Shown: positions 22,659 through 35,947, numbered from the stretch's first letter. The stretch is 35,947 nucleotides of DNA from a virus (IMGVR_UViG_2897375277_000005); one strand, 5' to 3'. Made by a program: numbers and translations. Notes: generated by a model not told the origin, from the letters alone.

Positions 22659-23259
22659 TTCGTTGTTACCACCATCAGCCAGCAATTTCATGCGTTGTGC
22701 CGAAGCCATCGGAACACGCATTACAGACATTCCGGTAGACCTCAACACGCTGTGGTCGCCGGATACCTGCCCGGTGCATCTGCTGCCTTATCTCGCCTGG
22801 GCATTTTCCGTTGACCGCTGGGATCGCAACTGGCCGGAAGAGACAAAGCGACAGGTGATTCGTGATGCATGGCTGATACACCGACACAAAGGGACCATCA
22901 GCGCACTGCGAAGAGCCGTGGAGCCTCTCGGCTACCTGATTGAAGTAAAGGAGTGGTGGCAACTCAACGAGGAGCCGGGAACATTTCGCATTGTTATCGG
23001 AGTACTTGATCAGGGCATCACCGATGAAATGTATCAGGAACTTGAGCGCCTTATTGCGGATGCAAAACCAGTAAGTCGCCATCTGACGGGGCTGGCGATC
23101 AGCCTGAGTGTGAACGGAAAGATTTTCGTTGGTACGGGATGCTATCACGGCGATGCCCTGACGGTTTATCCCTACACCCCGGAGTCCATTATTGTCGAAG
23201 GGGATTATTTCCCTGCCCCGGCCATTCATTTAATTGATAATCTGAGAGTAAACGCATGA
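22651..23259 (+). CDS. I: baseplate protein (P2 I family)
   Basis: Internal ATG 22651 overlaps the J stop; 202 aa. Confidence 0.75.
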   Translation: MSNSLLPPSASNFMRCAEAIGTRITDIPVDLNTLWSPDTCPVHLLPYLAWAFSVDRWDRNWPEETKRQVIRDAWLIHRHKGTISALRRAVEPLGYLIEVKEWWQLNEEPGTFRIVIGVLDQGITDEMYQELERLIADAKPVSRHLTGLAISLSVNGKIFVGTGCYHGDALTVYPYTPESIIVEGDYFPAPAIHLIDNLRVNA

Positions 23260-24890
23260 CAGTGAAATACTACGCCATTCTGACTAATCAGGGCGCGGCA
23301 CGACTGGCTAACGCGACAATGCTCGGCAGTAAGCTGAATCTGACGCAAATGGCCGTTGGTGATGCAAATGGTGTGTTACCAACACCAGACCCTGCACAAA
23401 CAAAACTGATTAACCAGAAACGCATTGCACCGCTGAATCTTCTGAGTGTTGACCCTAACAATCAGAGCCAGATTATTGCGGAGCAAATCATCCCTGAAAA
23501 CGAGGGAGGATTCTGGATCCGTGAGATTGGTCTTTATGATGATGAAGGCGTACTCATTGCGGTGGCGAACTGCCCGGAAACGTACAAACCGCAGTTGCAG
23601 GAAGGCAGCGGTCGTACCCAGACTATCCGCATGATTCTGGTTGTCACGAATACCGAAGCCATCACGCTGAAAATCGACCCATCGGTGGTTCTGGCAACCC
23701 GCAAATATGTGGATGATAAAATCTCAGAGCACGAACAGTCACGACGTCACCCGGACGCCTCGCTGACCGCAAAAGGTTTTACTCAGTTAAGCAGTGCAAT
23801 TAACAGTGAATCAGAAACACTGGCCGCAACACCGAAAGCGGTTAAGGCTGCATATGACCTGGCTAACGGGAAATATACCGCCCAGAACGCCACCACTATA
23901 CAAAAAGGGATTGTTCAGCTCAGTAGCGCCACGAACAGCACGTCTGAAACGCTGGCAGCGACACCAAAAGCTGTTAAGGTGGTAATGGATGAAACGAACA
24001 AGAAAGCACCATTAAACAGCCCGGCACTGACCGGAACGCCAACAACACCAACAGCGCCACAGGGAACTAATAGTACCCAGATCGCAAGCACGGCTTTCGT
24101 TATGGCCGCGATTGCCGCACTTGTAGATTCGTCACCTGATGCACTGAACACGCTGAACGAACTGGCTGCGGCGCTGGGCAATGACCCGAATTTTGCGACC
24201 ACCATGACTAACGCGCTTGCGGGTAAGCAACCGAAGGATGCCACCCTGACGGCGCTGGCGGAGCTTGCTACATCAGCAGATAAACTCCCATATTTTACAG
24301 GGGCAGATCGTGCCGCGTTAACCGCGTTGACAAGTGTTGGACGTGCCATTCTTGGTAAAACCAGCACTCAGGGAGTTCTTGATTACCTTGGTTTGGGAGA
24401 AGGCTCTGCATTACCGGTTGGGGTGCCTGTTCCGTGGCCTTCAGCCACTCCGCCAACAGGCTGGCTGAAATGCAACGGTGCCGCTTTTTCTGCTGAAGAA
24501 TACCCGGAACTGGCAAAGGCTTATCCGACAAATAAATTGCCTGATTTACGTGGTGAGTTTATTCGTGGCTGGGATGACGGGCGTGGTATTGATGCTGTAC
24601 GTGCCTTGCTAAGTCTTCAGAATGGAGGAGTGGAATCACACACCCACCAAGGGCAGCTCTTCAGAGTTAGTGATTATCGTACAAAAGAAATACCAGCATC
24701 AGAAGTTATGGGAAGAGGATATATTGCAAGCCTGACGCCGGGTGCTGATAGCCCACTTGATTTTGATGATTATTCTGTATCTTCTAATCCAAATGGATAT
24801 TTTGTCGGGAATCAGAGAACAACAGCATATGGGATAAATGAAACCCGTCCACGGAATATTGCATTTAACTATATCGTGAGGGCTGCATAA
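23256..24890 (+). CDS. H: tail fibre protein (P2 H family), current C-terminal variant
   Basis: 544 aa; internal tail-fibre repeats (SETLAATPKAVK twice); the C-terminal third lies inside the invertible segment. Confidence 0.85.
   Translation: MTVKYYAILTNQGAARLANATMLGSKLNLTQMAVGDANGVLPTPDPAQTKLINQKRIAPLNLLSVDPNNQSQIIAEQIIPENEGGFWIREIGLYDDEGVLIAVANCPETYKPQLQEGSGRTQTIRMILVVTNTEAITLKIDPSVVLATRKYVDDKISEHEQSRRHPDASLTAKGFTQLSSAINSESETLAATPKAVKAAYDLANGKYTAQNATTIQKGIVQLSSATNSTSETLAATPKAVKVVMDETNKKAPLNSPALTGTPTTPTAPQGTNSTQIASTAFVMAAIAALVDSSPDALNTLNELAAALGNDPNFATTMTNALAGKQPKDATLTALAELATSADKLPYFTGADRAALTALTSVGRAILGKTSTQGVLDYLGLGEGSALPVGVPVPWPSATPPTGWLKCNGAAFSAEEYPELAKAYPTNKLPDLRGEFIRGWDDGRGIDAVRALLSLQNGGVESHTHQGQLFRVSDYRTKEIPASEVMGRGYIASLTPGADSPLDFDDYSVSSNPNGYFVGNQRTTAYGINETRPRNIAFNYIVRAA
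24376..24401. other. invertase crossover site (hix/gix/cix-like), left
   Basis: TTCTTGATTACC-TT-GGTTTGGGAGAA: 12-2-12 architecture resembling hixL (TTCTTGAAAACCAAGGTTTTTGATAA). Lies inside H codons 374-382. Confidence 0.65.
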
Positions 24891-25492
24891 TGGATAACGC
24901 TGTATTAAATAGCGAGTTTATTGCTACAAAGGCGGGGAATATTACCGTCTATAACTATGATGGCGAAACACGGGAATATATTTCCACATCAACTGAATAT
25001 CTTGCCGTTGGTGTCGGTATCCCTGCATATTCCTGTTTAGATGCCCCTGGCACATACAAAGCTGGTTATGCAATCTGCCGATCTGTAGATTTTAACTCAT
25101 GGGAATATGTGCCAGACCATCGCGGTGAAATCGTCTTTAGCACCGAAACAGGAGAATCAAAAGAAATCACAGCTCCGGGTGATTACCCTGATAATACAAC
25201 CACTATCGCCCCGTTAACGCCATACGATAAATGGGATGGTGAGAAATGGGTGACGGATACCGAAGCACAGCATAGCGCCGCAGTAGATGCAGCAGAAGCA
25301 CAGCGCCAGTCACTGATTGATACTGCAATGGCTTCAATCAGTCTGATTCAGCTGAAATTGCAGGCCGGACGTAAACTGACGCAGGCAGAAACAACCAGCC
25401 TTAACGCTGTACTGGATTACATTGACGCGGTGACGGCAACTGATACCAGCACCGCGCCAGATGTCATCTGGCCTGAACTGCCGGAGGCGTAG
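24890..25492 (+). CDS. G: tail fibre assembly chaperone (P2 G / Tfa family)
   Basis: 200 aa directly after H; conserved Tfa C-terminal motif (LDYIDAV...APDVIWPELP). Confidence 0.8.
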   Translation: MDNAVLNSEFIATKAGNITVYNYDGETREYISTSTEYLAVGVGIPAYSCLDAPGTYKAGYAICRSVDFNSWEYVPDHRGEIVFSTETGESKEITAPGDYPDNTTTIAPLTPYDKWDGEKWVTDTEAQHSAAVDAAEAQRQSLIDTAMASISLIQLKLQAGRKLTQAETTSLNAVLDYIDAVTATDTSTAPDVIWPELPEA

Positions 25493-25904
25493 GCCATTCA
25501 ATATCTGGCGCACTGGCGGTATCGACCAGCTCCAGTGCGTCCAGATAATCCAGCCACAAATTATATTGTGCCAGTTCCTCACCTTTCAGACGACCAATAG
25601 CTGCTTTACCAGGCCATTGCTTACCGTTCATGTAATCATTGGCTAAATCTATTCTTTTTTGCTTCTCGACATCAGCGGTGACAATTAATTCTTCTCGTGT
25701 AGGTGGAGGAATATCACCCCATGATGGCATGTTATTTAAAGTTATAAGTTGCTTACCTGTAGGGGGAGTGCCGGAAAACTCATAATAAATGCTGTCACTA
25801 ACGTTAATGGCATCATGCGGCCAACAATTATTATCAACATAATCAGCCTGCCACTCGATGGCATAAAAACGGGACTCAGATGGACTGAACACAAAACGAT
25901 TCAT
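25464..25904 (-). CDS. alternative tail fibre assembly chaperone (inverted orientation)
   Basis: 146-aa minus-strand ORF convergent with tfa, overlapping its 3' end; shares the Tfa C-terminal motif (LDYLDAL...APDIEWPTPP). Confidence 0.75.
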   Translation of the reverse strand: MNRFVFSPSESRFYAIEWQADYVDNNCWPHDAINVSDSIYYEFSGTPPTGKQLITLNNMPSWGDIPPPTREELIVTADVEKQKRIDLANDYMNGKQWPGKAAIGRLKGEELAQYNLWLDYLDALELVDTASAPDIEWPTPPAVQAR

Positions 25905-25905
25905 A

Positions 25906-26214
25906 TTAATATCCTATAGCTAAAAACATAGCGTCTGAGGTGTTTGTATTTACAGCAATATTCATCATGACCTGAGCGGTAAATCCTGTATTGCTTACCC
26001 ACTCGCATGAGTTAGTTATCTGAACCCATGTTAATTTGGTAGAAAAAACGCCCCAGCAATTAACAGGGAACGGGACAGGGAAAGTCACTGGCACAGAATT
26101 TACTACACCGACAGTAGTCAAATTTGCGAGCGTCCGGCGAAACACCTGAATCTTAAGACCATCAGGACCTGTAAATAACAAATTATCGGTGTACTGCCCG
26201 CTTGCTCTTAAACC
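25906..26214 (-). CDS. alternative tail fibre C-terminal cassette (promoterless; fused to H constant region after inversion)
   Basis: Minus-strand reading frame running from the right crossover site to a stop at 25906. Frame is preserved across the crossover core. Confidence 0.65.
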   Translation of the reverse strand, partial: GLRASGQYTDNLLFTGPDGLKIQVFRRTLANLTTVGVVNSVPVTFPVPFPVNCWGVFSTKLTWVQITNSCEWVSNTGFTAQVMMNIAVNTNTSDAMFLAIGY

Positions 26215-26228
26215 AACGTTTAAGAAAA
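26203..26228. other. invertase crossover site (hix/gix/cix-like), right, inverted relative to the left site
   Basis: TGCTCTTAAACC-AA-CGTTTAAGAAAA; core AA is the reverse complement of the left core TT, as required for inversion. Confidence 0.6.
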
Positions 26229-26283
26229 TGCAGAGATTACGGCTAACTGGCATCATCCCCGGTTTTTATTCAGGGGATCCATC

Positions 26284-26883
26284 ATGCTTATTGGCTATGT
26301 CCGCGTATCAACAAATGACCAGAATACAGAATTGCAGCGTAACGCGCTGGAGTGCGCAGGATGTGAACTGATTTTTGAAGATAAAATCAGCGGAACGAAA
26401 TCAGCCAGACCGGGATTGAAAAAACTGCTCAGAACGCTATCAGAAGGAGATACGCTGGTTGTCTGGAAGCTGGACAGACTGGGCAGAAGTATGAAACACC
26501 TGATCACGCTTATTGAGGAATTGCGGGAAAAAGGTGTTAATTTCCGTAGTCTGACGGACAGCATTGACACATCAACACCCATGGGGCGTTTCTTTTTTCA
26601 CGTCATGGGAGCTTTAGCCGAAATGGAACGTGAATTAATTGTAGAGCGTACACTGGCCGGGCTGGCAGCAGCACGCGCACAAGGACGCATTGGCGGACGT
26701 CGCCCGAAGTTGACAAAAGAACAACACGAGCAAATAGCGAGGCTGATTAAAAACGGTCATGACAGGAAACAACTGGCGATCATTTACGACATCGGCATAT
26801 CGACGATTTATCGTTATCACCCTGTAGGCGATATACAGGCTGAAGAAACAACCAGGCAGATTCAGGAAAATGAAAACCGCTAA
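26284..26883 (+). CDS. serine DNA invertase (Hin/Gin/Cin/Pin family)
   Basis: MLIGYVRVSTNDQNTELQ...GDTLVVWKLDRLGRSMKHL...catalytic Ser in VRVST and C-terminal HTH; 199 aa. Confidence 0.9.
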   Translation: MLIGYVRVSTNDQNTELQRNALECAGCELIFEDKISGTKSARPGLKKLLRTLSEGDTLVVWKLDRLGRSMKHLITLIEELREKGVNFRSLTDSIDTSTPMGRFFFHVMGALAEMERELIVERTLAGLAAARAQGRIGGRRPKLTKEQHEQIARLIKNGHDRKQLAIIYDIGISTIYRYHPVGDIQAEETTRQIQENENR

Positions 26884-26909
26884 TCTGACCATTAGCGGTT
26901 TTGCGTTAA

Positions 26910-27404
26910 TCAAAACAGCCCTTTAACGGAGCTGGCCGCGCTGTTAAGGGATGATGTGACCTTATCTTTGAAGCCGGACAGCATATCACTGAACGATGAG
27001 GATTGCAGGCGCTCCCGCAAATCCTCATCACAGCGTTCAAGAGTCAGTGAAAATTCTATCTTTTTCGCCTTACCGTAGCGATCAAACTCGGAGCGGGTCG
27101 TATTCGTTTCAGTCAGTACATACATGCCGTAAATCTGTCCGACGCCATCAATCAGAGGCCAGGGGCGTCCTGTATACGCCTGCGTGGTCAGCAGCGACAG
27201 CGACACTTCGCCACCTGTGATTTCAGGATAAAGCACACCAGAAAGCACGATGCGATCATCGCCTGCCCCGATATACTGCCAGCTTGCTGAACGGTTAACG
27301 CGTTCATTTTTCACATGCCGCCAGCTTTTATTTTGCTGTAACTGCTGATGCGGCAATGTGCGCAGCTCAAAAACAAACATGCCGTAGATCATCATCATGG
27401 CCAT
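26910..27404 (-). CDS. U: tail protein (P2 U family)
   Basis: 164 aa immediately downstream (minus strand) of the tape measure; ...LSGVLYPEITGG...LIDGVGQIYGMYVLTETN...RYGKAKKIEFSL resembles P2 gpU as remembered. Confidence 0.7.
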   Translation of the reverse strand: MAMMMIYGMFVFELRTLPHQQLQQNKSWRHVKNERVNRSASWQYIGAGDDRIVLSGVLYPEITGGEVSLSLLTTQAYTGRPWPLIDGVGQIYGMYVLTETNTTRSEFDRYGKAKKIEFSLTLERCDEDLRERLQSSSFSDMLSGFKDKVTSSLNSAASSVKGLF

Positions 27405-27410
27405 GACTCC

Positions 27411-30254
27411 TCAATCTTTATCGTAAAAACTGCCACGTCCGGCACGGTCGCGTCGTTCCAATTCTGCCCTGACCATTTCACCGACCAGTTTCGCCAGTTC
27501 GCGGGGATTCTGCGTAACAACGTTATGCAGATGAACATGAATTTCACCGCCAAATCCGGAGACAACAGGCTCCCGGTTACGGGAAGTTGCAGGAACTGAT
27601 GCCACTGGCGATCGTATGGCCTCCGCCACCGGGCGGGAGCTGGCCGCAACAACAGGGACCAGCGCCGGAGGCAGAGGAGTCGGGACCACGGGTGTGATGT
27701 TGATTGCGGAAGCAGGCTTACTGACCTGCGCAATCTTCCGCTCCTGCCACTCCCCACGAACAGCAAGTGCGCGGGGCAGGTTCTTAAAGACAATATCGCC
27801 GGGGCCAATGCGTTTTTTCGTCTCATCAACCAGCTTACCTGTGTTATCAGCAATTTTGCTGAGTCTGCGTAGCGTACCGGTATTGCTGTCTGTGAGCGGT
27901 TTGTTGTCTTTGGGTTTATCACCTCCGGTGCCATTGCCATTTTCCACAGGCTTCGGCGGATTGATTTTCGCCAGGTCCCCCTGAAGCAAGGCAACCTTGT
28001 CCTGAAGAATGGCCGCACGCTGTGCGTCTTCGATTTTCTTGCGCGCCCTTTCCGCTTCATCCGGAAGGACGCCAAGTTTTTCAAGTATCCACGCCAGCGT
28101 ATCCAGTAGCATTTTTGCAGGCGTCAGAACAAGTTGTAACGCACCGCCAAGAACGTTACCGAATATCTCGCCAGCACTGGTACATTTATCCAGCGTTTCC
28201 TTGCTGGACTCCATCGGTGACAGCAGCGATTTAAACCAGTTAAACACCTGGCTGATCCCGCTTCCGATTGCGTCAAAAACAGGACCAAACCGTTCAAAGG
28301 TTTCGCGCAACGGGGCCAGCCTTTCCATAATCCCGCTGAACACCCCGGCAAAAAATGCCCTGATGGGATCCCAGTATTTCCAGATAAGAACGGCAGCTCC
28401 GGCAAGCGCAGCCACGATAAGACCAACCGGACTGAACAGCGCCCCGATAGCACCTCCCAGCAAAGAAACGGAACCCGTCACCATTCCCCATAGTGCTGGC
28501 AGGAGCCTGACAGCATTCATTGATCCGGTCAGGAGGGAAAAACCAAGACGCAGTTTTGCCAGTGGGCCAGCAAGCACACCAAGAGCAAGCGACAACGAGC
28601 CTACGGTTGCAGTCACTGCCAGCAGCGCACCGCCTGCAATCAGTAGCTGGCGCGTCAGTACAGGATGGGCCTGCGCCAGTGCCGTCACCTTTGAGACCAC
28701 CCGCGTTAGCCACTGCGTGACAGAACGCAGCGGACCGTCAATCAGATCTGCAATGCGGATGCGCAACCCTTCCCATGCACTGCCGAGTGATTTCAGATCG
28801 CCGTCAAGGTTGTTGGCCATAACCTTTGCCGTGCGCTCAGCCTCACCGCGCGCGCCTTCAAGTTCTTTTCTCAGTTTAGGTAAGGAGCCGTCACCTGCCG
28901 CATCAACGAGGGCCATAAATGATGTGAAAGCCTCTTCTCCGGCAATGTCCTTAAAGAACGATACCCGGTCAACTTCCCCGTATTTGCGGGTGGCTTTATA
29001 AAGGTCGGCCAGCAAATCCTCCATCGGGCGCATTTTGCCGTTCGCATCAGAGACGGACACGCCCAGCTCTTTCAGAGCTTCTGCCGCCGCCTTTGGCGGT
29101 GATGCCAGACGAGCCAGGCTGGCACGCATTGCCGTCCCGGCATCACTTCCCCTGATACCCATATTCGCCAGTACGCCCGCCATCGCTGCGGCCTGCTCCA
29201 GCGATATTCCCAGCTTGCCCGCCACCGGACCTGCATATTTCATGGTTTCACCCAGTGCGCGAAGGTCAGTGTTGGTACGGGTAAACGCTGCGGTAAGTGT
29301 GTCACCGACCCGGTCCATCTGGTCAGCAGAAAGGCCGAACTGCGTCAGGATATTTGAGCCAATATCCGCCGTCTCGCCGAGATCCATACCGCCAGCCGTT
29401 GCCATGCTCAGCACGCCGGGAAGCGCAGCCTGAATGGCCTGCGGAGTAAAACCAGCCATTGCAAGAAATGCCTGCCCACTGGCGGCATCGCCTGCGGTGA
29501 ACTGCGTTTCAGAGCCAAGTTTTAACGCCTGCTCACGCAGCGCCTTAAACTGCGGGCTGTTTTTGTCGATTCGCGTCAGTGCCTGAACGCGGGACATCTC
29601 TTTCCCGAACCCGATCGCAGGCTGCAAAAAACGCCCGGCAGCATAGCCGCCCGCAGCTGCCGCACCAATTGCCAGCGCACCACCTGTTTTCAGTTTTCCC
29701 GCTGTTTCCTGTACGCGCGAATACCGCTCACGCGCCCGCGTTACACGCGCAAGCGCCTGCCGTTCGCGTTCAAGCTGGTTGTTGTACTGTTCGGTGCGTC
29801 TGATGGCCTGCTGGATGGTGTTATCGCTGCCTGTCAGGGAAATGCCGTGGCGTTTCAGCTCTCCGCCAAGCTCCCGCATTTTCTGAATTTCCCGTGTGCG
29901 CGATTCATTCAGGCGTTCAAGCCGGGTGCTTAACTGCTGCATCAGCTTTTGTTGTTTTTCGCTGAGCACTGTACCCGTGCGTTGTAACTGATTAAGGGCG
30001 TTAAGCTGGCGTCGTGCTTTCACGATACCCGCATCCGCTTTACTGACAGCGTCGCGGGCGCGCTCAAATGAACGCGCCTGACGCTCGAGATTTTTGATCG
30101 CCCCCTGCGTTCGCTGGATGGAGTCACCAAACTGCCCCATCAGGCGGCGTGCGTTTTCTGCAGGTCGGGTCAGCCTGTCAACGGCGCTGAAAGCGACCCG
30201 GATATCAAGAGTCTTCATTGTCTGCATTCCCGCTGCGAAGTGCCGCCCGCTCAC
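27411..30254 (-). CDS. T: tail tape measure protein (P2 T family)
   Basis: 947 aa with long coiled-coil N-terminal region and Gly/Ala-rich hydrophobic central segments; its start overlaps E'. Confidence 0.85.
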   Translation of the reverse strand: MSGRHFAAGMQTMKTLDIRVAFSAVDRLTRPAENARRLMGQFGDSIQRTQGAIKNLERQARSFERARDAVSKADAGIVKARRQLNALNQLQRTGTVLSEKQQKLMQQLSTRLERLNESRTREIQKMRELGGELKRHGISLTGSDNTIQQAIRRTEQYNNQLERERQALARVTRARERYSRVQETAGKLKTGGALAIGAAAAGGYAAGRFLQPAIGFGKEMSRVQALTRIDKNSPQFKALREQALKLGSETQFTAGDAASGQAFLAMAGFTPQAIQAALPGVLSMATAGGMDLGETADIGSNILTQFGLSADQMDRVGDTLTAAFTRTNTDLRALGETMKYAGPVAGKLGISLEQAAAMAGVLANMGIRGSDAGTAMRASLARLASPPKAAAEALKELGVSVSDANGKMRPMEDLLADLYKATRKYGEVDRVSFFKDIAGEEAFTSFMALVDAAGDGSLPKLRKELEGARGEAERTAKVMANNLDGDLKSLGSAWEGLRIRIADLIDGPLRSVTQWLTRVVSKVTALAQAHPVLTRQLLIAGGALLAVTATVGSLSLALGVLAGPLAKLRLGFSLLTGSMNAVRLLPALWGMVTGSVSLLGGAIGALFSPVGLIVAALAGAAVLIWKYWDPIRAFFAGVFSGIMERLAPLRETFERFGPVFDAIGSGISQVFNWFKSLLSPMESSKETLDKCTSAGEIFGNVLGGALQLVLTPAKMLLDTLAWILEKLGVLPDEAERARKKIEDAQRAAILQDKVALLQGDLAKINPPKPVENGNGTGGDKPKDNKPLTDSNTGTLRRLSKIADNTGKLVDETKKRIGPGDIVFKNLPRALAVRGEWQERKIAQVSKPASAINITPVVPTPLPPALVPVVAASSRPVAEAIRSPVASVPATSRNREPVVSGFGGEIHVHLHNVVTQNPRELAKLVGEMVRAELERRDRAGRGSFYDKD

Positions 30255-30441
30255 GCCAGCTAACCACTTCGCCGGGCGTCATCATGAAGATTTCGGCGGG
30301 CGACCAGTTAAAAATAACGGCAATATCTGCCACAAAGTCTTCTATGTGCTCAAAGCACACAACCGTGATCAGGCTTCCGTCGCCTGTTCGTTCTTCCCGC
30401 CAGAGTCCGCACCGCTCAAAAAATTTACGGCAACCACACAT
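30205..30441 (-). CDS. E' frameshift extension of the tail assembly chaperone (expressed as an E+E' fusion)
   Basis: ORF in the -1 frame relative to E, beginning at the slippery site and overlapping the T start. Confidence 0.65.
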   Translation of the reverse strand: MCGCRKFFERCGLWREERTGDGSLITVVCFEHIEDFVADIAVIFNWSPAEIFMMTPGEVVSWRERAALRSGNADNEDS

Positions 30442-30734
30442 AACTGAATAAAGTCACGGGATGCCATTTTTTTGATCGTCACTTCATCCAGTCGCGGTGA
30501 TGTCACGCGTGACAGCAGCGTAAACATGGATTCCGCTTTCAGATTCAGCACATCAGACAGCGACAAATCTCGCAGAGATCCAGCCTGCTCAATAGCCCCG
30601 GTGATCTCCACATACGTGATTTTTTCGCCGCCTCGCTCAATTGGTTGGGTAAGTTTTACGCCACGCTCACTGGTTTCTTTCACAGTGTCAGCAACTACCG
30701 TGTTTTCGGTATCGATGTTTTTCGTCTCTTTCAT
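30369..30734 (-). CDS. E: tail assembly chaperone (P2 E family)
   Basis: 121 aa between tube and tape measure; slippery heptamer near its 3' end. Confidence 0.75.
   Translation of the reverse strand: MKETKNIDTENTVVADTVKETSERGVKLTQPIERGGEKITYVEITGAIEQAGSLRDLSLSDVLNLKAESMFTLLSRVTSPRLDEVTIKKMASRDFIQLCVVAVNFLSGADSGGKNEQATEA
30417..30423 (-). promoter_or_regulatory. programmed -1 ribosomal frameshift slippery heptamer T TTT TTG
   Basis: On the minus-strand mRNA the E codons AAT TTT TTG give the heptamer T-TTT-TTG; the -1 frame continues as the E' ORF. Confidence 0.65.
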
Positions 30735-30788
30735 CAGGAAACTCCTTTCAGTCAGAGGCGGCGCACTGCGCCGCCTGCATATTACTTA

Positions 30789-31301
30789 TCAGCCAAGCCC
30801 AAGCGCGGAACGGATGCGATCAGGCACGATGTCCTTGCCGTCCTTCCGGTAGATGTGGTTCAGCAGGTCGATTTCCCACAGCGGACGATCGTTAACGCTC
30901 AGCTTGTAGTAGGTGTTTTTGACAGCGTAAGTGTGTGATGTGGCTTCGCCCTGTTTGGCTTCCCCCATATCAATTTCCGTCACACGCCCGCGCATCTCGA
31001 TTTCATACAGATCACTTTCTGCATCGGTGTAGTATTCACCCGCAAAACGCAGCAACGTGCCGTCAATCGTGCCGCCATATTTAAGGAACAGCTCACGAAC
31101 TGCGCCCCCCATGACAAAACTCGCATCAAGCGCAGAATCATCAAGACCGAGGTCGATACTCACCGCCCCCATCATGCCACCGCCACGATAGCTTTCAGTT
31201 TTGCGCGTCAGTTTAGGTGGAGTGACGGACGTCACCTTACCCACTTCGTTTTCACCATTCACAAACAGCGTAAAAAAGCGAAGATGTTTTGGTACAGCCA
31301 T
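30789..31301 (-). CDS. FII: tail tube protein (P2 FII family)
   Basis: 170 aa directly downstream of the sheath gene. Confidence 0.85.
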   Translation of the reverse strand: MAVPKHLRFFTLFVNGENEVGKVTSVTPPKLTRKTESYRGGGMMGAVSIDLGLDDSALDASFVMGGAVRELFLKYGGTIDGTLLRFAGEYYTDAESDLYEIEMRGRVTEIDMGEAKQGEATSHTYAVKNTYYKLSVNDRPLWEIDLLNHIYRKDGKDIVPDRIRSALGLG

Positions 31302-32485
31302 CAGACACCTCCCAACACCGCAAATGCGGGATCAAAGTATTCATCAGTAAACGTCTGGTAAAGCTCCATATCTTCCAGCGGAGGAACGGGCGTATATTTG
31401 TAGCGAATACGCACACGCCCCTGACGTAAATCCGTGGTGCTGTTATCCACCACGTCATACCAGCACGACGCGCCAATCAGTTTCCCGGCAGTAACCAGTG
31501 AATCCAGTTTTGCCCTGATGGCACTGATAACATCCTTCACGTTCGCAGGCGTCAGTGGACTGTCGATGGTTTCAAACTGCGCTTCCGCAATTGAATCAGC
31601 CAGCACCTGTGCGGTTCGGGTATACACCTCAAAGATGTAGGCGTTCGTTTCCGGTGTGCGGTTGCCCCAGAAGCGGAACCCGTTGCGACGAATAATGGTC
31701 GTGATTTCTTTGTTGTTGAGGCTGTTGGCATCGCTGTCTTCGGCCTGTAACGACCAGAACACATGCCGGGACATCCCCAGCACATTTTTAACCGGAACGT
31801 TGGACAGCGATTTGTGCCAGCCCTGCTCATGGTCAATGTACGCACGAAGGCCGCACGCATAGGCAGGTGCGGGGAACGTTTCGTTTTTGCCACTTTTCGG
31901 GTTGTAGGCGATGAAGTCCGGCCATAAGAGCATCACCTCACGTTCGTTGAATTTCTGGCGGTAGGTAATCGCCTCAGCCATCGTGTTACAGCCGTGACAT
32001 GAGGCATACACAAACGCGCGCAGCTTACCCGCAATCACGCACAGGGATTTTGTCACCGCCTCCGTGTCCAGCTCCGGCGCGGCCAGAATACGCGGACGGT
32101 ATCCGATGCTTTCATCCTGCTCTGCAACAAGCAGCGCATACATCCCCGTATAGCTGCCGTCATCATCAGAACCACCGATAACCAGTTGATCCTGCGTCTT
32201 TTCGTCCTCTTCTTTGTGTTCAGCCACGCGAACGACGATCACCTTTGTGCTCACCTGGTCTGCGATGGCCTTAAGCGCACGATAAAGCGTCCCCGTTGTT
32301 CCGCATTTTCCCAGCACGTCATTGACGCGGGTCAGCAGTGTGGGCTTGTTCAGCGGGAACAGCTTCGCGTCCGCATCATCCGCCGTTGCCACGATACCGA
32401 TAACGCTGGAATCAACATCGTTAATCGCTGTTACCAGGTCGGTATTTTCCGTAACACGGGCACCATGAAAACGAGTTTCACTCAT
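31301..32485 (-). CDS. FI: contractile tail sheath protein (P2 FI family)
   Basis: 394 aa; first gene of the minus-strand tail operon. Confidence 0.88.
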   Translation of the reverse strand: MSETRFHGARVTENTDLVTAINDVDSSVIGIVATADDADAKLFPLNKPTLLTRVNDVLGKCGTTGTLYRALKAIADQVSTKVIVVRVAEHKEEDEKTQDQLVIGGSDDDGSYTGMYALLVAEQDESIGYRPRILAAPELDTEAVTKSLCVIAGKLRAFVYASCHGCNTMAEAITYRQKFNEREVMLLWPDFIAYNPKSGKNETFPAPAYACGLRAYIDHEQGWHKSLSNVPVKNVLGMSRHVFWSLQAEDSDANSLNNKEITTIIRRNGFRFWGNRTPETNAYIFEVYTRTAQVLADSIAEAQFETIDSPLTPANVKDVISAIRAKLDSLVTAGKLIGASCWYDVVDNSTTDLRQGRVRIRYKYTPVPPLEDMELYQTFTDEYFDPAFAVLGGV

Positions 32486-32642
32486 AGCTTCAGCCCCTTG
32501 TATCCGTTAAATGATTCGGCAACAATCATCACCCACCACGCGCGTAATCTCACCCCTGCGCCGTTCTCCCGCCACGGCGACAACAAAAAGCAGTAACCCC
32601 CTCCGCACGCACATGCGACCATGCCACACAGGGAGGGAGCAG
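32486..32642. promoter_or_regulatory. divergent late promoter region (FI leftward, D rightward), positional
   Basis: 157-bp gap between divergent FI and D; strong RBS (GGGAGGGAG) before the D start. Confidence 0.35.
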
Positions 32643-33743
32643 ATGACCGACACCACCATGCAATTGCTCAGTCAGGGCACAGACCCCGTGAAAATGCCGG
32701 ATTTTGATATTCTCGCCGAGGGGGAAACACTGTCCGGCGTGGCAGAGCGCCTGATGAGCCTGTCACTGACCGACAACCGGGGATTTGAAGCAGACCAGCT
32801 CACCATCACGCTGGATGATGCTGATGGTCAGTTGCAGTTGCCGCCACGGGGCGCTCGCCTGACGGTTCTCATTGGCTGGAAAGGCGAACCGCTGACAGAA
32901 AAAGGCACTTACATTGTTGATGAAATTGCTCATGAAGGACCGCCCGACAGACTGACCATTTCAGCCAGAAGCGCAGATTTTCGGGATGAATTTAACGTCA
33001 AGCGCGAAGTGTCCTGGCATGATGTGACCGTTGAGCGAGTGGTATCCGCCATCGCTCATCGGTACGGTCTGAAACCGCAAATCAGCGAAATGCTGATGGA
33101 TATCGAAATCGACCACGCCGACCAGACCGAAGAAAGTGACATGTCCTTCCTTACGCGCATGGCGGAAATGCTGGGCGCAATCACCACGGTAAAAAGCGGT
33201 AATCTGTTATTCATTATGCCAGGTGGTGGCGTGAACGCGCAGGGAAAACCATTGCCATCGTTTGCCATCACACGCAGCAGCGGCGATCGCCATCAGTTTC
33301 GCATTGCTGACCGCGAGGCGTATACAGGTGTACGCGCCTACTGGCTTGATCTTAATTACGGGAAAAAGAAAAAAGTCAGCGTGAAACGCCGCAAACCGAA
33401 AAAGGAGAAAAGCAGCAGCCGTGAAGGTGATTATATGGAGGGCGCGGAAGGCAATGTGTTTGTGTTACGCAAGACTTATCAGAACGAGCAGGCAGCAAGA
33501 CGCGCAGCGGCGGCAAAGTGGCAGCAGCTACAACGCGGAGCCGCATCATTCTCCATCACGCTGGCGCGTGGACGCGCAGAACTCTATCCCGAAATGCATG
33601 GCACGGTAACAGGATTTAAAAGCGAGATTGATAATCAGGACTGGATTATTGCAAAAGCCGAGCACACCATTGATAACAGCGGCTTTACCACGCAGCTTGA
33701 GCTTGAGGCAAAAATCCCGGAATGGATAGCGGAAACAGAGTGA
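32643..33743 (+). CDS. D: tail protein D (P2 late gene D family)
   Basis: Internal ATG 32643 with GGGAGGGAG RBS; 366 aa, matching P2 gpD size class; followed by ogr. Confidence 0.8.
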   Translation: MTDTTMQLLSQGTDPVKMPDFDILAEGETLSGVAERLMSLSLTDNRGFEADQLTITLDDADGQLQLPPRGARLTVLIGWKGEPLTEKGTYIVDEIAHEGPPDRLTISARSADFRDEFNVKREVSWHDVTVERVVSAIAHRYGLKPQISEMLMDIEIDHADQTEESDMSFLTRMAEMLGAITTVKSGNLLFIMPGGGVNAQGKPLPSFAITRSSGDRHQFRIADREAYTGVRAYWLDLNYGKKKKVSVKRRKPKKEKSSSREGDYMEGAEGNVFVLRKTYQNEQAARRAAAAKWQQLQRGAASFSITLARGRAELYPEMHGTVTGFKSEIDNQDWIIAKAEHTIDNSGFTTQLELEAKIPEWIAETE

Positions 33744-34512: not shown

Positions 34513-34809
34513 ATGAGTGAAATGGTATTTTGTCGCGGATGCGGCAAGGAAATACATAAAGATGCCACATCCTGCCCCAATTGTGGAGCACCTCAAAGAA
34601 CAGCAAGTTCAAAAAGCAGAATGACAGCCGCACTACTGGCTTTCTTTTTAGGTGGTCTTGGTGCACACAAATTTTATTTAGGTAAAGTGGGGCAAGGATT
34701 CCTTTACCTTATTTTTTGCTGGACATTCATTCCGGCAATCGTGGCATTTATTGAGTTTTTTATCTATCTATGCACCTCTGATGAAGACTTTGCCCGCAAA
34801 TATGGCTAA
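34513..34809 (+). CDS. zinc-ribbon plus TM2-domain membrane protein
   Basis: N-terminal CxxC...CxxC (CRGCGKEIHKDATSCPNCG) followed by two hydrophobic helices typical of TM2-domain proteins (LAFFLGGLGAHKFYLGK...). Confidence 0.6.
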   Translation: MSEMVFCRGCGKEIHKDATSCPNCGAPQRTASSKSRMTAALLAFFLGGLGAHKFYLGKVGQGFLYLIFCWTFIPAIVAFIEFFIYLCTSDEDFARKYG

Positions 34810-34835
34810 TGCCTAGTGGGCGAATCAGAATGACA

Positions 34836-34869
34836 AACCCGCAGCGTAAAAACTGCGGGTTTTCTTTTT
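34836..34869 (+). terminator. rho-independent terminator
   Basis: AACCCGCAG-CGTAAAAA-CTGCGGGTT followed by TTTTCTTTTT. Confidence 0.65.
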
Positions 34870-34998
34870 GGTGTCCTCACAAATGAGGGCACCACCCATA
34901 AGCAATAGGCATAACAGATCGATGCAATAAATCCGATCGATAAAAACGATCGATTTGTTATCATATCGGCAGCAGTAACCACACAAGAGGTGCCGCAA

Positions 34999-35196
34999 AT
35001 GACGCAAAATGTACGATGCAAAAATTGCAACAAACTACTTGCCCGCGCCTCATTTCACTACATTGAAATAAAATGTCCGCGCTGCAAAACACTTAACCAG
35101 ATAACGAGAGCCATCGAGCACCCCACACACATGAGGAGTTATGACCGTGGGGATCGCAATCCAGCACCAACCAGCACATACACCGGAACACACTAA
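34999..35196 (+). CDS. com: Com-like zinc-finger protein (Mu Com family translational activator)
   Basis: VRCKNCNKLLARASFHYIEIKCPRCK matches Mu Com (IRCKNCNKLLFKADSFDHIEIRCPRCK); AAGAGG RBS; its 3' end overlaps the methyltransferase start. Confidence 0.65.
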   Translation: MTQNVRCKNCNKLLARASFHYIEIKCPRCKTLNQITRAIEHPTHMRSYDRGDRNPAPTSTYTGTH

Positions 35197-35947
35197 GGTT
35201 TATCAGACTGACAATGCCACGCTCTGTCGTGGGAATGCGCTGGAAATATTGCCGCTGATTGAGCCAGAAAGTATTGATGCCTTAATCACTGACCCGCCTT
35301 ACAGTTCGGGCGCGACACACAAGGCCGGACGCACCAACCAGGGCAGCCACGCAAAATATCTGAACGGCGAGAACCTTCATCGCTTTGATGGGTTTGCGGG
35401 TGAAAACATGGATGCCCGTTCGTGGGCTTACTGGACACAATTATGGATGGCACAGGCACACCGCGCAGTCAGGCCGGGCGGTTATGCCCTGGTATTTACT
35501 GACTGGCGACAACTACCAGCTTTAACCGATGCGTTTCAGGCCAGTGGCTTTACATGGCGCGGTATCATTGCGTGGAACAAGGGGAGGGGGTCACGAACAC
35601 CCCATACCGGGTATTTCCGGCATCAGTGCGAATACATTGTCTGGGGCAGCAAAGGCCATTTAGATAAATCGCCTTCGGGGCCGTTCGACGGCTGCATGAC
35701 GTTCCCGGTTATCCCGTCAAAGAAAATGCACCCGACCGGAAAACCAGAAGAACTAATGGCAGAGCTGGTCAGGACTGTGAATAGTGGCGGAACAGTCCTT
35801 GATCCTTTTATGGGGTCAGGGACAACGGGTGTGGCTGCACTGAAAGCAGGGCGAAAATTTATTGGTATAGAAACCAGTGATCATTATTTTGAGGTAGCAG
35901 CGCAGCGGCTTCGGGGGACTATTACCACAACCATTTCGGCTACATAA
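35141..35947 (+). CDS. DNA amino-methyltransferase (N6-adenine or N4-cytosine, beta-class motif order)
   Basis: DPPY motif (LITDPPYSS) followed C-terminally by the SAM-binding FxGxG motif (FMGSGTTGVAA); GAGGAG RBS. Specificity cannot be told from sequence alone. Confidence 0.8.
   Translation: MTVGIAIQHQPAHTPEHTKVYQTDNATLCRGNALEILPLIEPESIDALITDPPYSSGATHKAGRTNQGSHAKYLNGENLHRFDGFAGENMDARSWAYWTQLWMAQAHRAVRPGGYALVFTDWRQLPALTDAFQASGFTWRGIIAWNKGRGSRTPHTGYFRHQCEYIVWGSKGHLDKSPSGPFDGCMTFPVIPSKKMHPTGKPEELMAELVRTVNSGGTVLDPFMGSGTTGVAALKAGRKFIGIETSDHYFEVAAQRLRGTITTTISAT

Follow-up and report, generated by a model that had tools for sequence, protein, structure and literature searches.

Can a prophage exchange the tip of its own tail fibre by inverting part of the fibre operon, and is the prophage in the viral stretch IMGVR_UViG_2897375277_000005 built to do so? 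The stretch (35,947 nt), here called the window and taken at its full length, carries a tail-fibre gene, H (23256-24890, + strand, 544 aa), whose 3' part lies in a 1,825-bp segment (24390-26214) that also holds a second fibre end and chaperone gene in the opposite orientation and that is adjoined by a serine DNA invertase gene. A reading made from the sequence alone had proposed that this arrangement is an invertible tail-fibre switch with two mapped crossover sites. Inversion of the tail-fibre genes of Mu and P1 gives particles with different host range, and the mechanism is already known: Mu, P1 and e14 made it textbook material, and E. coli P2-like prophages have been shown to use it. The value of the locus as a discovery is small, given how well the mechanism is understood. 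However common the principle, the combination of this H shaft and these two arms in Escherichia albertii appears to be undocumented. Here, we report that the segment is very probably a Gin/Pin-type invertible tail-fibre cassette, which would switch H tips in a P2-like prophage. The locus, sites, open reading frames (ORFs) and segment were checked on the window, and a Pfam profile search across it was used for the domain calls of the ORFs.

Results

The two 26-bp hix/gix-like sites that the sequence-only reading had placed in inverted orientation can both be read at the positions it gave. The left site lies at 24376-24401 (TTCTTGATTACC-TT-GGTTTGGGAGAA) with its TT core at 24388-24389, and the right site at 26203-26228 (TGCTCTTAAACC-AA-CGTTTAAGAAAA) with its AA core at 26215-26216. 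The left core was said to occupy codon positions 2-3 of H codon 378, and this codon is indeed CTT at 24387-24389. The right core was said to occupy the same positions of a minus-strand codon, and it does fill positions 2-3 of codon 14 (GTT, 26217-26215) of the ORF 25906-26256. We built the flipped state in silico and searched with the junctions and ORFs of both states. Reversal of 24390-26214 bears out the expected in-frame join of H residues 1-378 to the alternative C-terminus: it gives an uninterrupted H' of 480 aa, composed of these residues plus 102 aa. It also turns the alternative chaperone gene tfa' (25464-25904, 146 aa) into the sense orientation, as had been anticipated, with its start 1 nt past the H' stop. 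The frame of the fibre gene and all five ORFs of the cassette region are intact, which establishes the anatomy of the cassette and its reading frame.

The constant part of H (23256-24389, + strand, residues 1-378; Pfam Phage_tail_fib and Phage_fiber_2) lies outside the segment. Inside, on the same strand, are Hv, the presently expressed, StfE-type C-terminus of H (24390-24890; Pfam Collar), and the TfaE-type chaperone gene for it, tfa (24890-25492, 200 aa; Pfam Caudo_TAP). On the minus strand, tfa' (Pfam Caudo_TAP) is at present antisense to the H operon, and Hv', the alternative C-terminus (25906-26214, 102 aa plus stop; Pfam Gp53-like_C), completes the second module. A 14-codon leader (MMPVSRNLCIFLNV, 26217-26256, - strand) reads into the segment from the invertase side, so that in the orientation as sequenced the leader and Hv' form an ORF of 116 aa (25906-26256, - strand). 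The leader is the counterpart of the K-12 stfE leader and, together with the arm that is silent in the given orientation, forms a free-standing ORF.

Both orientations of the segment exist in nature. The ORF that a flip creates from the leader and Hv is recorded, as a 180-aa protein of exactly this sequence, from 14 E. coli contigs, and its look-up led to two E. coli P2-like prophages, L018 and L020. In both, the 1,825-bp segment recurs (99.2% and 99.3% identity), equal in length and without indels, in the opposite orientation relative to both H and the invertase. Their H-side junction reads ...ACC TT GGTTTAAGAGCA and their invertase-side junction TTCTCCCAAACC AA CGTTTAAGAAAATGCAGAG, both as predicted. 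Their H proteins begin like the window H and, after the join in ...YLGL/RASGQYTDNLL... (slash at the junction), end in an arm 100% identical to Hv'. In P0031 the Hv' arm, again 100% identical, is fused at LGL/RASG, and Hv is parked in the silent position in L015-L020. The existence of the segment in both orientations is thereby established, and the comparison with L018 and L020 indicates that the cassette of the window has inverted at these sites in nature.

Closely related pairs narrow down the breakpoints. The e14 copies of the E. coli dog isolates Z1323PEC0013 and Z1323PEC0011 are identical over 4.3 kb save for one exact reverse complement; the segment concerned is ~95% identical to that of the window and has the same inner half-sites, and the breakpoints lie within TTGGTTT/AAACCAA, a heptamer that includes the TT/AA core. 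The O157:H7 prophages of FRIK944 and BB24-1 carry the segment as exact reverse complements over 1.9 kb, with CC/TT and AA/CG as boundaries. FRIK944 is identical to the window at the left site, in the right outer half-site, and over the leader and the first 205 nt of the invertase gene. In FRIK944, the relative of the flipped BB24-1, the left junction has the same sequence as the left site of the window; the right inner half-site equals that in the e14 copy of the inversion-differing dog isolates; and the right outer half-site is identical to O157:H7, L018 and L020. The comparative breakpoints place the exchange inside the 7-nt TTGGTTT, TT core included; that it would occur exactly at the 2-bp core is taken from knowledge of the family rather than from data on this locus.

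The state of inversion also shapes annotation. In BB24-1, which is flipped (L007, 1857-3362), the RefSeq/PGAP fibre gene appears as two pseudogene fragments and a short 'gp53-like' ORF; in the unflipped relative L006 the fibre is annotated as one 544-aa gene. Inversion state can thus produce spurious pseudogenes in annotations and hide the fused proteins from protein databases. As a separate observation, the E. albertii draft contigs L024 and L025 end inside tfa' (at about window 25800-25870), within the segment and off the crossover sites. We considered mixed orientation as the cause of these breaks and rejected it, given that they miss the crossover sites; the contig ends probably reflect a repeat common to other prophages.

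Aligned as inverted repeats, the two sites agree at only 16/26 positions, and a generic repeat finder (seed 9) run on the window did not report the pair because of this low mutual identity. The pattern WWACCWWSGTTT has two matches in the 35.9 kb, exactly the two sites, where 0.08 are expected; it was derived from the two sites themselves and therefore chiefly shows the absence of a third copy. We also built a weight matrix from external sites only (Mu gix and e14 pix), of which the e14 half-sites are homologous to those of the window and the Mu ones are independent. This matrix ranks the two sites 1st and 2nd in the window, at 25.9 and 22.9 bits, against 18.7 bits for the best of 30 shuffles. 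No third crossover site was found by the matrix in the whole window, the third-best score being 16.0 bits (32767, inside gene D), within the null range. A shufflon-like or multi-site system was rejected, given that only two sites exceed the shuffle maximum and that the recombinase is a serine enzyme.

A Hin/Gin-family invertase was said to be encoded just beyond the segment, and the ORF at 26284-26883 (+ strand, 199 aa) is such a gene. Its product matches the Pfam families Resolvase (E = 6e-52) and HTH_7 and can be aligned over its full length with two solved structures of Gin, 4m6f and 3uj3 (E = 1e-91). The motif VRVSTNDQ contains the catalytic Ser9, and the HTH domain matches the solved DNA-binding domain of Hin. 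Its membership of the Gin/Pin/Hin family of serine DNA invertases is established by these matches. Identity is 99% to the invertase of the O157:H7 P2-like prophage, 97% to a predicted invertase of enteropathogenic E. coli (EPEC) E2348/69, 82-84% to PinE of K-12 and 73-74% to Gin, and the exact protein is found on 291 contigs from E. coli and Salmonella.

The 100% identity with FRIK944 extends from the right outer half-site to nt 205 of the invertase gene and takes in the leader and an enhancer-like region. Within the latter, two Fis-like 15-mers (26317-26331 and 26365-26379) are spaced 48 bp from centre to centre, at 101-108 bp from the right core. Both are loose motif matches (13/15 to a degenerate consensus), are homologous in position to the Mu gin pair with its 48-bp spacing, and are conserved in e14 pin. 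The enhancer of Hin is 65 bp long with a Fis site at each end and lies ~100 bp from hixL inside the invertase gene (PMC3798978), and the size and ~100-bp distance of the element in the window agree with this geometry. Hence, we regard 26317-26379 as a candidate recombinational enhancer that Fis may bind.

Hv and tfa are ~95% identical at the nucleotide level to HK97 stf and tfa, the shared stretch starting at the site (24384-24388); 181/200 residues of tfa are identical to K-12 TfaE, and the exact tfa' protein occurs on 455 contigs. A search of NCBIfam gave no specific family for the fibre arms or the chaperones. The G+C content of the arms (0.39-0.43) is lower than that of the constant part (0.50-0.55). 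Residues 1 to ~380 of H are 100% identical in many database proteins with at least 10 unrelated C-termini, all of which diverge immediately after ...VLDYLGLG. Sandmeier et al. and Haggard-Ljungquist et al. are said to have described in 1992 that crossover sites also bound horizontally exchanged fibre modules, and the pattern of many tips on one shaft fits such a role. The E. albertii contigs L021 and L022 (5709-6534) combine the exact window H with a different silent module (a 145-aa tfa' and a 128-aa Gp53-like ORF), which by comparison with the window indicates that arms are swapped between otherwise identical prophages; their right inner half-site is of the perfect-repeat type.

Two further observations concern the arms. 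L015 (6001-8291) has the same two-module cassette, with the exact leader and Hv ORF of the window in a non-P2, myovirus-like baseplate context (Phage_Wedge1, Sheath_initiator), and no resolvase gene is called beside it; this cassette may be an orphan that is served in trans. In the window, tfa and tfa' are convergent and their 3' ends overlap by 29 bp (25464-25492). A 33-nt imperfect inverted repeat (25442-25474 / 25491-25523) encodes their similar C-terminal peptides (...TSTAPDVIWPELP and ...TASAPDIEWPTPP).

Discussion

The mechanism we propose is that of the family. Invertase dimers would bind the two 26-bp sites, and the site-bound dimers would assemble with host Fis on the enhancer in the 5' part of the invertase gene. 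Both sites would then be cut at the central TT/AA dinucleotide, one pair of subunits would rotate by 180 degrees, and religation would leave the 1,825-bp segment reversed. This cleavage chemistry, with a 2-nt stagger, and the dependence on Fis and supercoiling are assumed by analogy with relatives. The non-palindromic core (TT versus AA on the top strand) gives each site a polarity, and the inverted arrangement would therefore lead to inversion and not to deletion. In the orientation as sequenced the late operon would yield H-Hv (544 aa, with a Collar/StfE-type tip) together with the 200-aa Tfa; after inversion it would yield H-Hv' (480 aa, with a Gp53-like tip) together with the 146-aa Tfa'. 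Each inversion would exchange ~100-170 C-terminal residues of H and place the matching chaperone downstream in the late operon, and a lysogen population would release particles with two different receptor-binding tips. Lysates of this prophage are therefore expected to mix two fibre types. Two adsorption specificities, or host ranges, are a reasonable expectation because the tips belong to different families (Collar/StfE-like and Gp53-like_C).

Several points weigh against a switch that works in this very prophage. The exact prophage is known from a single sequence, and thus in one orientation only. Its sites match at 16/26 positions, whereas most relatives carry a perfect 16-bp repeat, and for this reason the flipping rate may be lower here. 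A simple scan for a sigma-70-like promoter of the invertase found none. An exact look-up of the 480-aa H' in a collection of 15 billion proteins did not find it, and searches of E. coli complete genomes (no full-length match), viral contigs, species-representative genomes and metagenomes did not find the flipped left junction of this H shaft. These last two negatives are weak, because the native H itself is on just 5 contigs and pipelines fragment flipped fibres into pseudogenes. The population search for the flipped junction failed because this H/arm pairing is rare: the native right junction is absent from viral contigs and representative genomes, and among E. coli genomes it occurs in only 11, at <=96% identity. 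A shorter 20-mer of the flipped junction matched viral contigs L009 and L010, in unrelated AT-rich sequence, and was discarded as chance sharing.

The site pair with 16/26 matches that the repeat finder overlooked, the flipped copy of the exact H/arm combination found nowhere searched, and the lack of a clear invertase promoter in the scan could describe a frozen relic. Such a cassette would descend from a working switch but no longer flip here, whether because the right inner half-site has diverged, because the invertase is poorly expressed or because host factors are absent. We consider this very unlikely. None of the five ORFs is disrupted. The invertase occurs as an identical protein on 291 contigs and is 99% identical to the enzyme of a prophage known in both states, and over the leader and the enhancer region the DNA is 100% identical to FRIK944. 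Moreover, the two e14 dog isolates show recombination at this same diverged inner half-site, and the lineage of L018 and L020 must have recombined there too. The switch is probably active in this particular prophage as well. That homologous recombination or cassette replacement between prophages, and not site-specific inversion, causes the differences in orientation is scarcely credible. The H junction is admittedly a general exchange point, with its many unrelated C-termini after identical residues 1 to ~380; unrelated phages such as HK97 share arms that begin exactly at the site, and L021 and L022 join the same H to another silent arm. However, the isogenic pairs differ by an exact reverse complement alone, an intact dedicated invertase adjoins the segment, and homologous loci have been found experimentally to flip within clonal cultures (PMC4272514). 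The 7-bp repeat that holds the breakpoints is, moreover, too short to support RecA-dependent exchange.

A site-specific inversion could also serve the lysogen. The switch might in addition, or mainly, select which free C-terminal fibre domain is made from the leader ORF (from 26256 leftwards), and this domain would mask receptors and exclude phages. From the e14 counterpart, inversion by PinQ/PinE gives StfE2, and this protein blocks the adsorption of T2 (PMC12529663); the window carries an equivalent leader ORF (MMPVSRNLCIFLNV plus the silent arm), and the leader and Hv ORF is widely conserved as an exact protein. Against this, a simple scan found no promoter-like site upstream of the leader on the minus strand, an open leader of 14 codons is not improbable by chance, the arms differ from K-12 StfP, and the classical fibre-switch role suffices, given that the structural gene set is complete. 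Hence, we find a function on the lysogen side unlikely. It is quite unlikely that the cassette does double duty, combining the change of virion tip with an inversion-controlled lysogen defence through a leader-fused receptor-binding domain, as in StfE2. If it did, this would be a case of inversion-controlled phage exclusion inside an intact P2-like prophage of E. albertii, provided that the leader protein is expressed in the lysogen.

Among the systems compared with this fibre-tip cassette, the P segment of e14 with its invertase PinE is, judging from sequence likeness, the nearest. Its inversion has been shown experimentally (PMC4272514, PMC12529663). The TT/AA core and the TTGGTTT inner motif are common to both; in K-12, pixL is CTCTCGAAAACC-TT-GGTTTGGGAGAA and pixR is TTCTCCCAAACC-AA-CGTTTATGAAAA. 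From 24384 onward the cassette of the window is ~95% identical to the e14 copies of some strains, and each has a chaperone of the TfaE type, with a leader ORF on the side of the invertase. However, e14 is defective and its fibre gene is truncated, whereas the window has a full P2-type H in a complete prophage. The C-terminal tail of the window invertase is different and longer (199 aa versus 184 aa), and the second arm of K-12, StfP/TfaP, is another allele than Hv'/tfa'.

In the E. coli P2-like prophages of EPEC E2348/69 and O157:H7 the module occupies the same position after H. For the EPEC prophages, Goldberg et al. 2014 found coexisting orientations in cultures by sequencing and PCR (PMC4272514), and one of their modules has three sites and four states (PMC4272514), in contrast to the two sites of the window. 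The O157:H7 prophage differs in having a perfect repeat of at least 15 bp (TTGGTTTGGGAGAAG) and a different alternative arm. The Salmonella H/Hin system of flagellar phase variation shares the recombinase family; it uses 26-bp sites with a 2-bp core and a Fis-dependent enhancer (PMC3798978). Hin flips a promoter and its own gene and so controls flagellin, whereas in the window the invertase gene lies outside and coding exons of the fibre are exchanged. The G segment of Mu with Gin has the same layout: Sc lies outside, Sv-U and Sv'-U' lie inside in opposite orientations, and gin is just outside; its gix half-sites fit the same matrix and its Fis-like 15-mers are equally placed in the gene. It differs in its core (TC/GA versus TT/AA), in the ~3 kb of the G segment, in arms that are unrelated in sequence and in a transposable Mu backbone in place of a P2-like one. 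The P1 C/Cin and p15B Min systems also use serine invertases of this family to switch tail-fibre C-termini, and the extra sites of Min allow more than two states; Rci shufflons are multi-site systems with a tyrosine recombinase.

For practical purposes, inversion at such loci explains the pseudogene-fragmented fibre annotations in flipped genomes such as BB24-1. One constant shaft that accepts many tips at a single 26-bp site is also useful for the engineering of phage host range.

Other features of the prophage

The window is a complete P2-like prophage of the Peduoviridae, in a P88-like lineage. From the left end, its gene order is integrase, replication, portal/terminase/capsid, lysis, baseplate V-W-J-I, tail fibre, tail genes and D/ogr, and the P2-type structural set was recognized by Pfam (Baseplate_J, Tail_P2_I, P2 GpU, sheath, GPD). 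Window 1-23000 is 95% identical to phages PhiR44_2 and P88 over 79-82%, and 425 E. coli records are colinear with the prophage layout. The exact H protein is on record solely from E. albertii (5 contigs known), and the complete E. albertii genome CP024282.1 (L023) is the sole fetched locus with the native right junction of the window. By these matches the host of the prophage is most probably E. albertii.

Two hairpins flank the invertase gene. A terminator-like hairpin with a T-run at 26245-26272 separates the right crossover site from the start codon of the invertase, and e14 and Mu share the conserved motif TGGCATNAT...TTTTA of this region. The hairpin might reduce transcription that continues from the fibre operon into the invertase gene. 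A perfect 12-bp hairpin (26873-26902), found by an inverted-repeat search between the invertase stop and the U stop, is likely to be a bidirectional terminator.

The invertase gene adjoins one edge of a tail block, U-T-E-FII-FI (26910-32485, - strand), that is inverted relative to phage P2 and to the invertase-bearing Peduovirus KC618326, in which FI-FII-E-T-U-D are colinear after G or the invertase. D and ogr (32511-33743) remain on the + strand, divergent from FI. The edges of the block carry a 9-mer inverted match (26922-26930 / 32503-32511; TTTAACGGA / TCCGTTAAA). Such edge 9-mers are marginally above chance (two versus 0.18 expected, with 4% of shuffles reaching two) and could be the relic of an old inversion at quasi-sites, or nothing. 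A recent flip of 26910-32485 by the invertase is not supported, given the 425 colinear E. coli records, which show the layout to be typical of the lineage, and edge matrix scores within the null range.

At the right end of the window, 34513-35947 encodes, by analogy with the annotated relative L005, a Hok/Gef protein, a TM2-domain protein, a Com-family regulator and a DNA methyltransferase. The pairing of com with a modification gene recalls com-mom beside gin in Mu.

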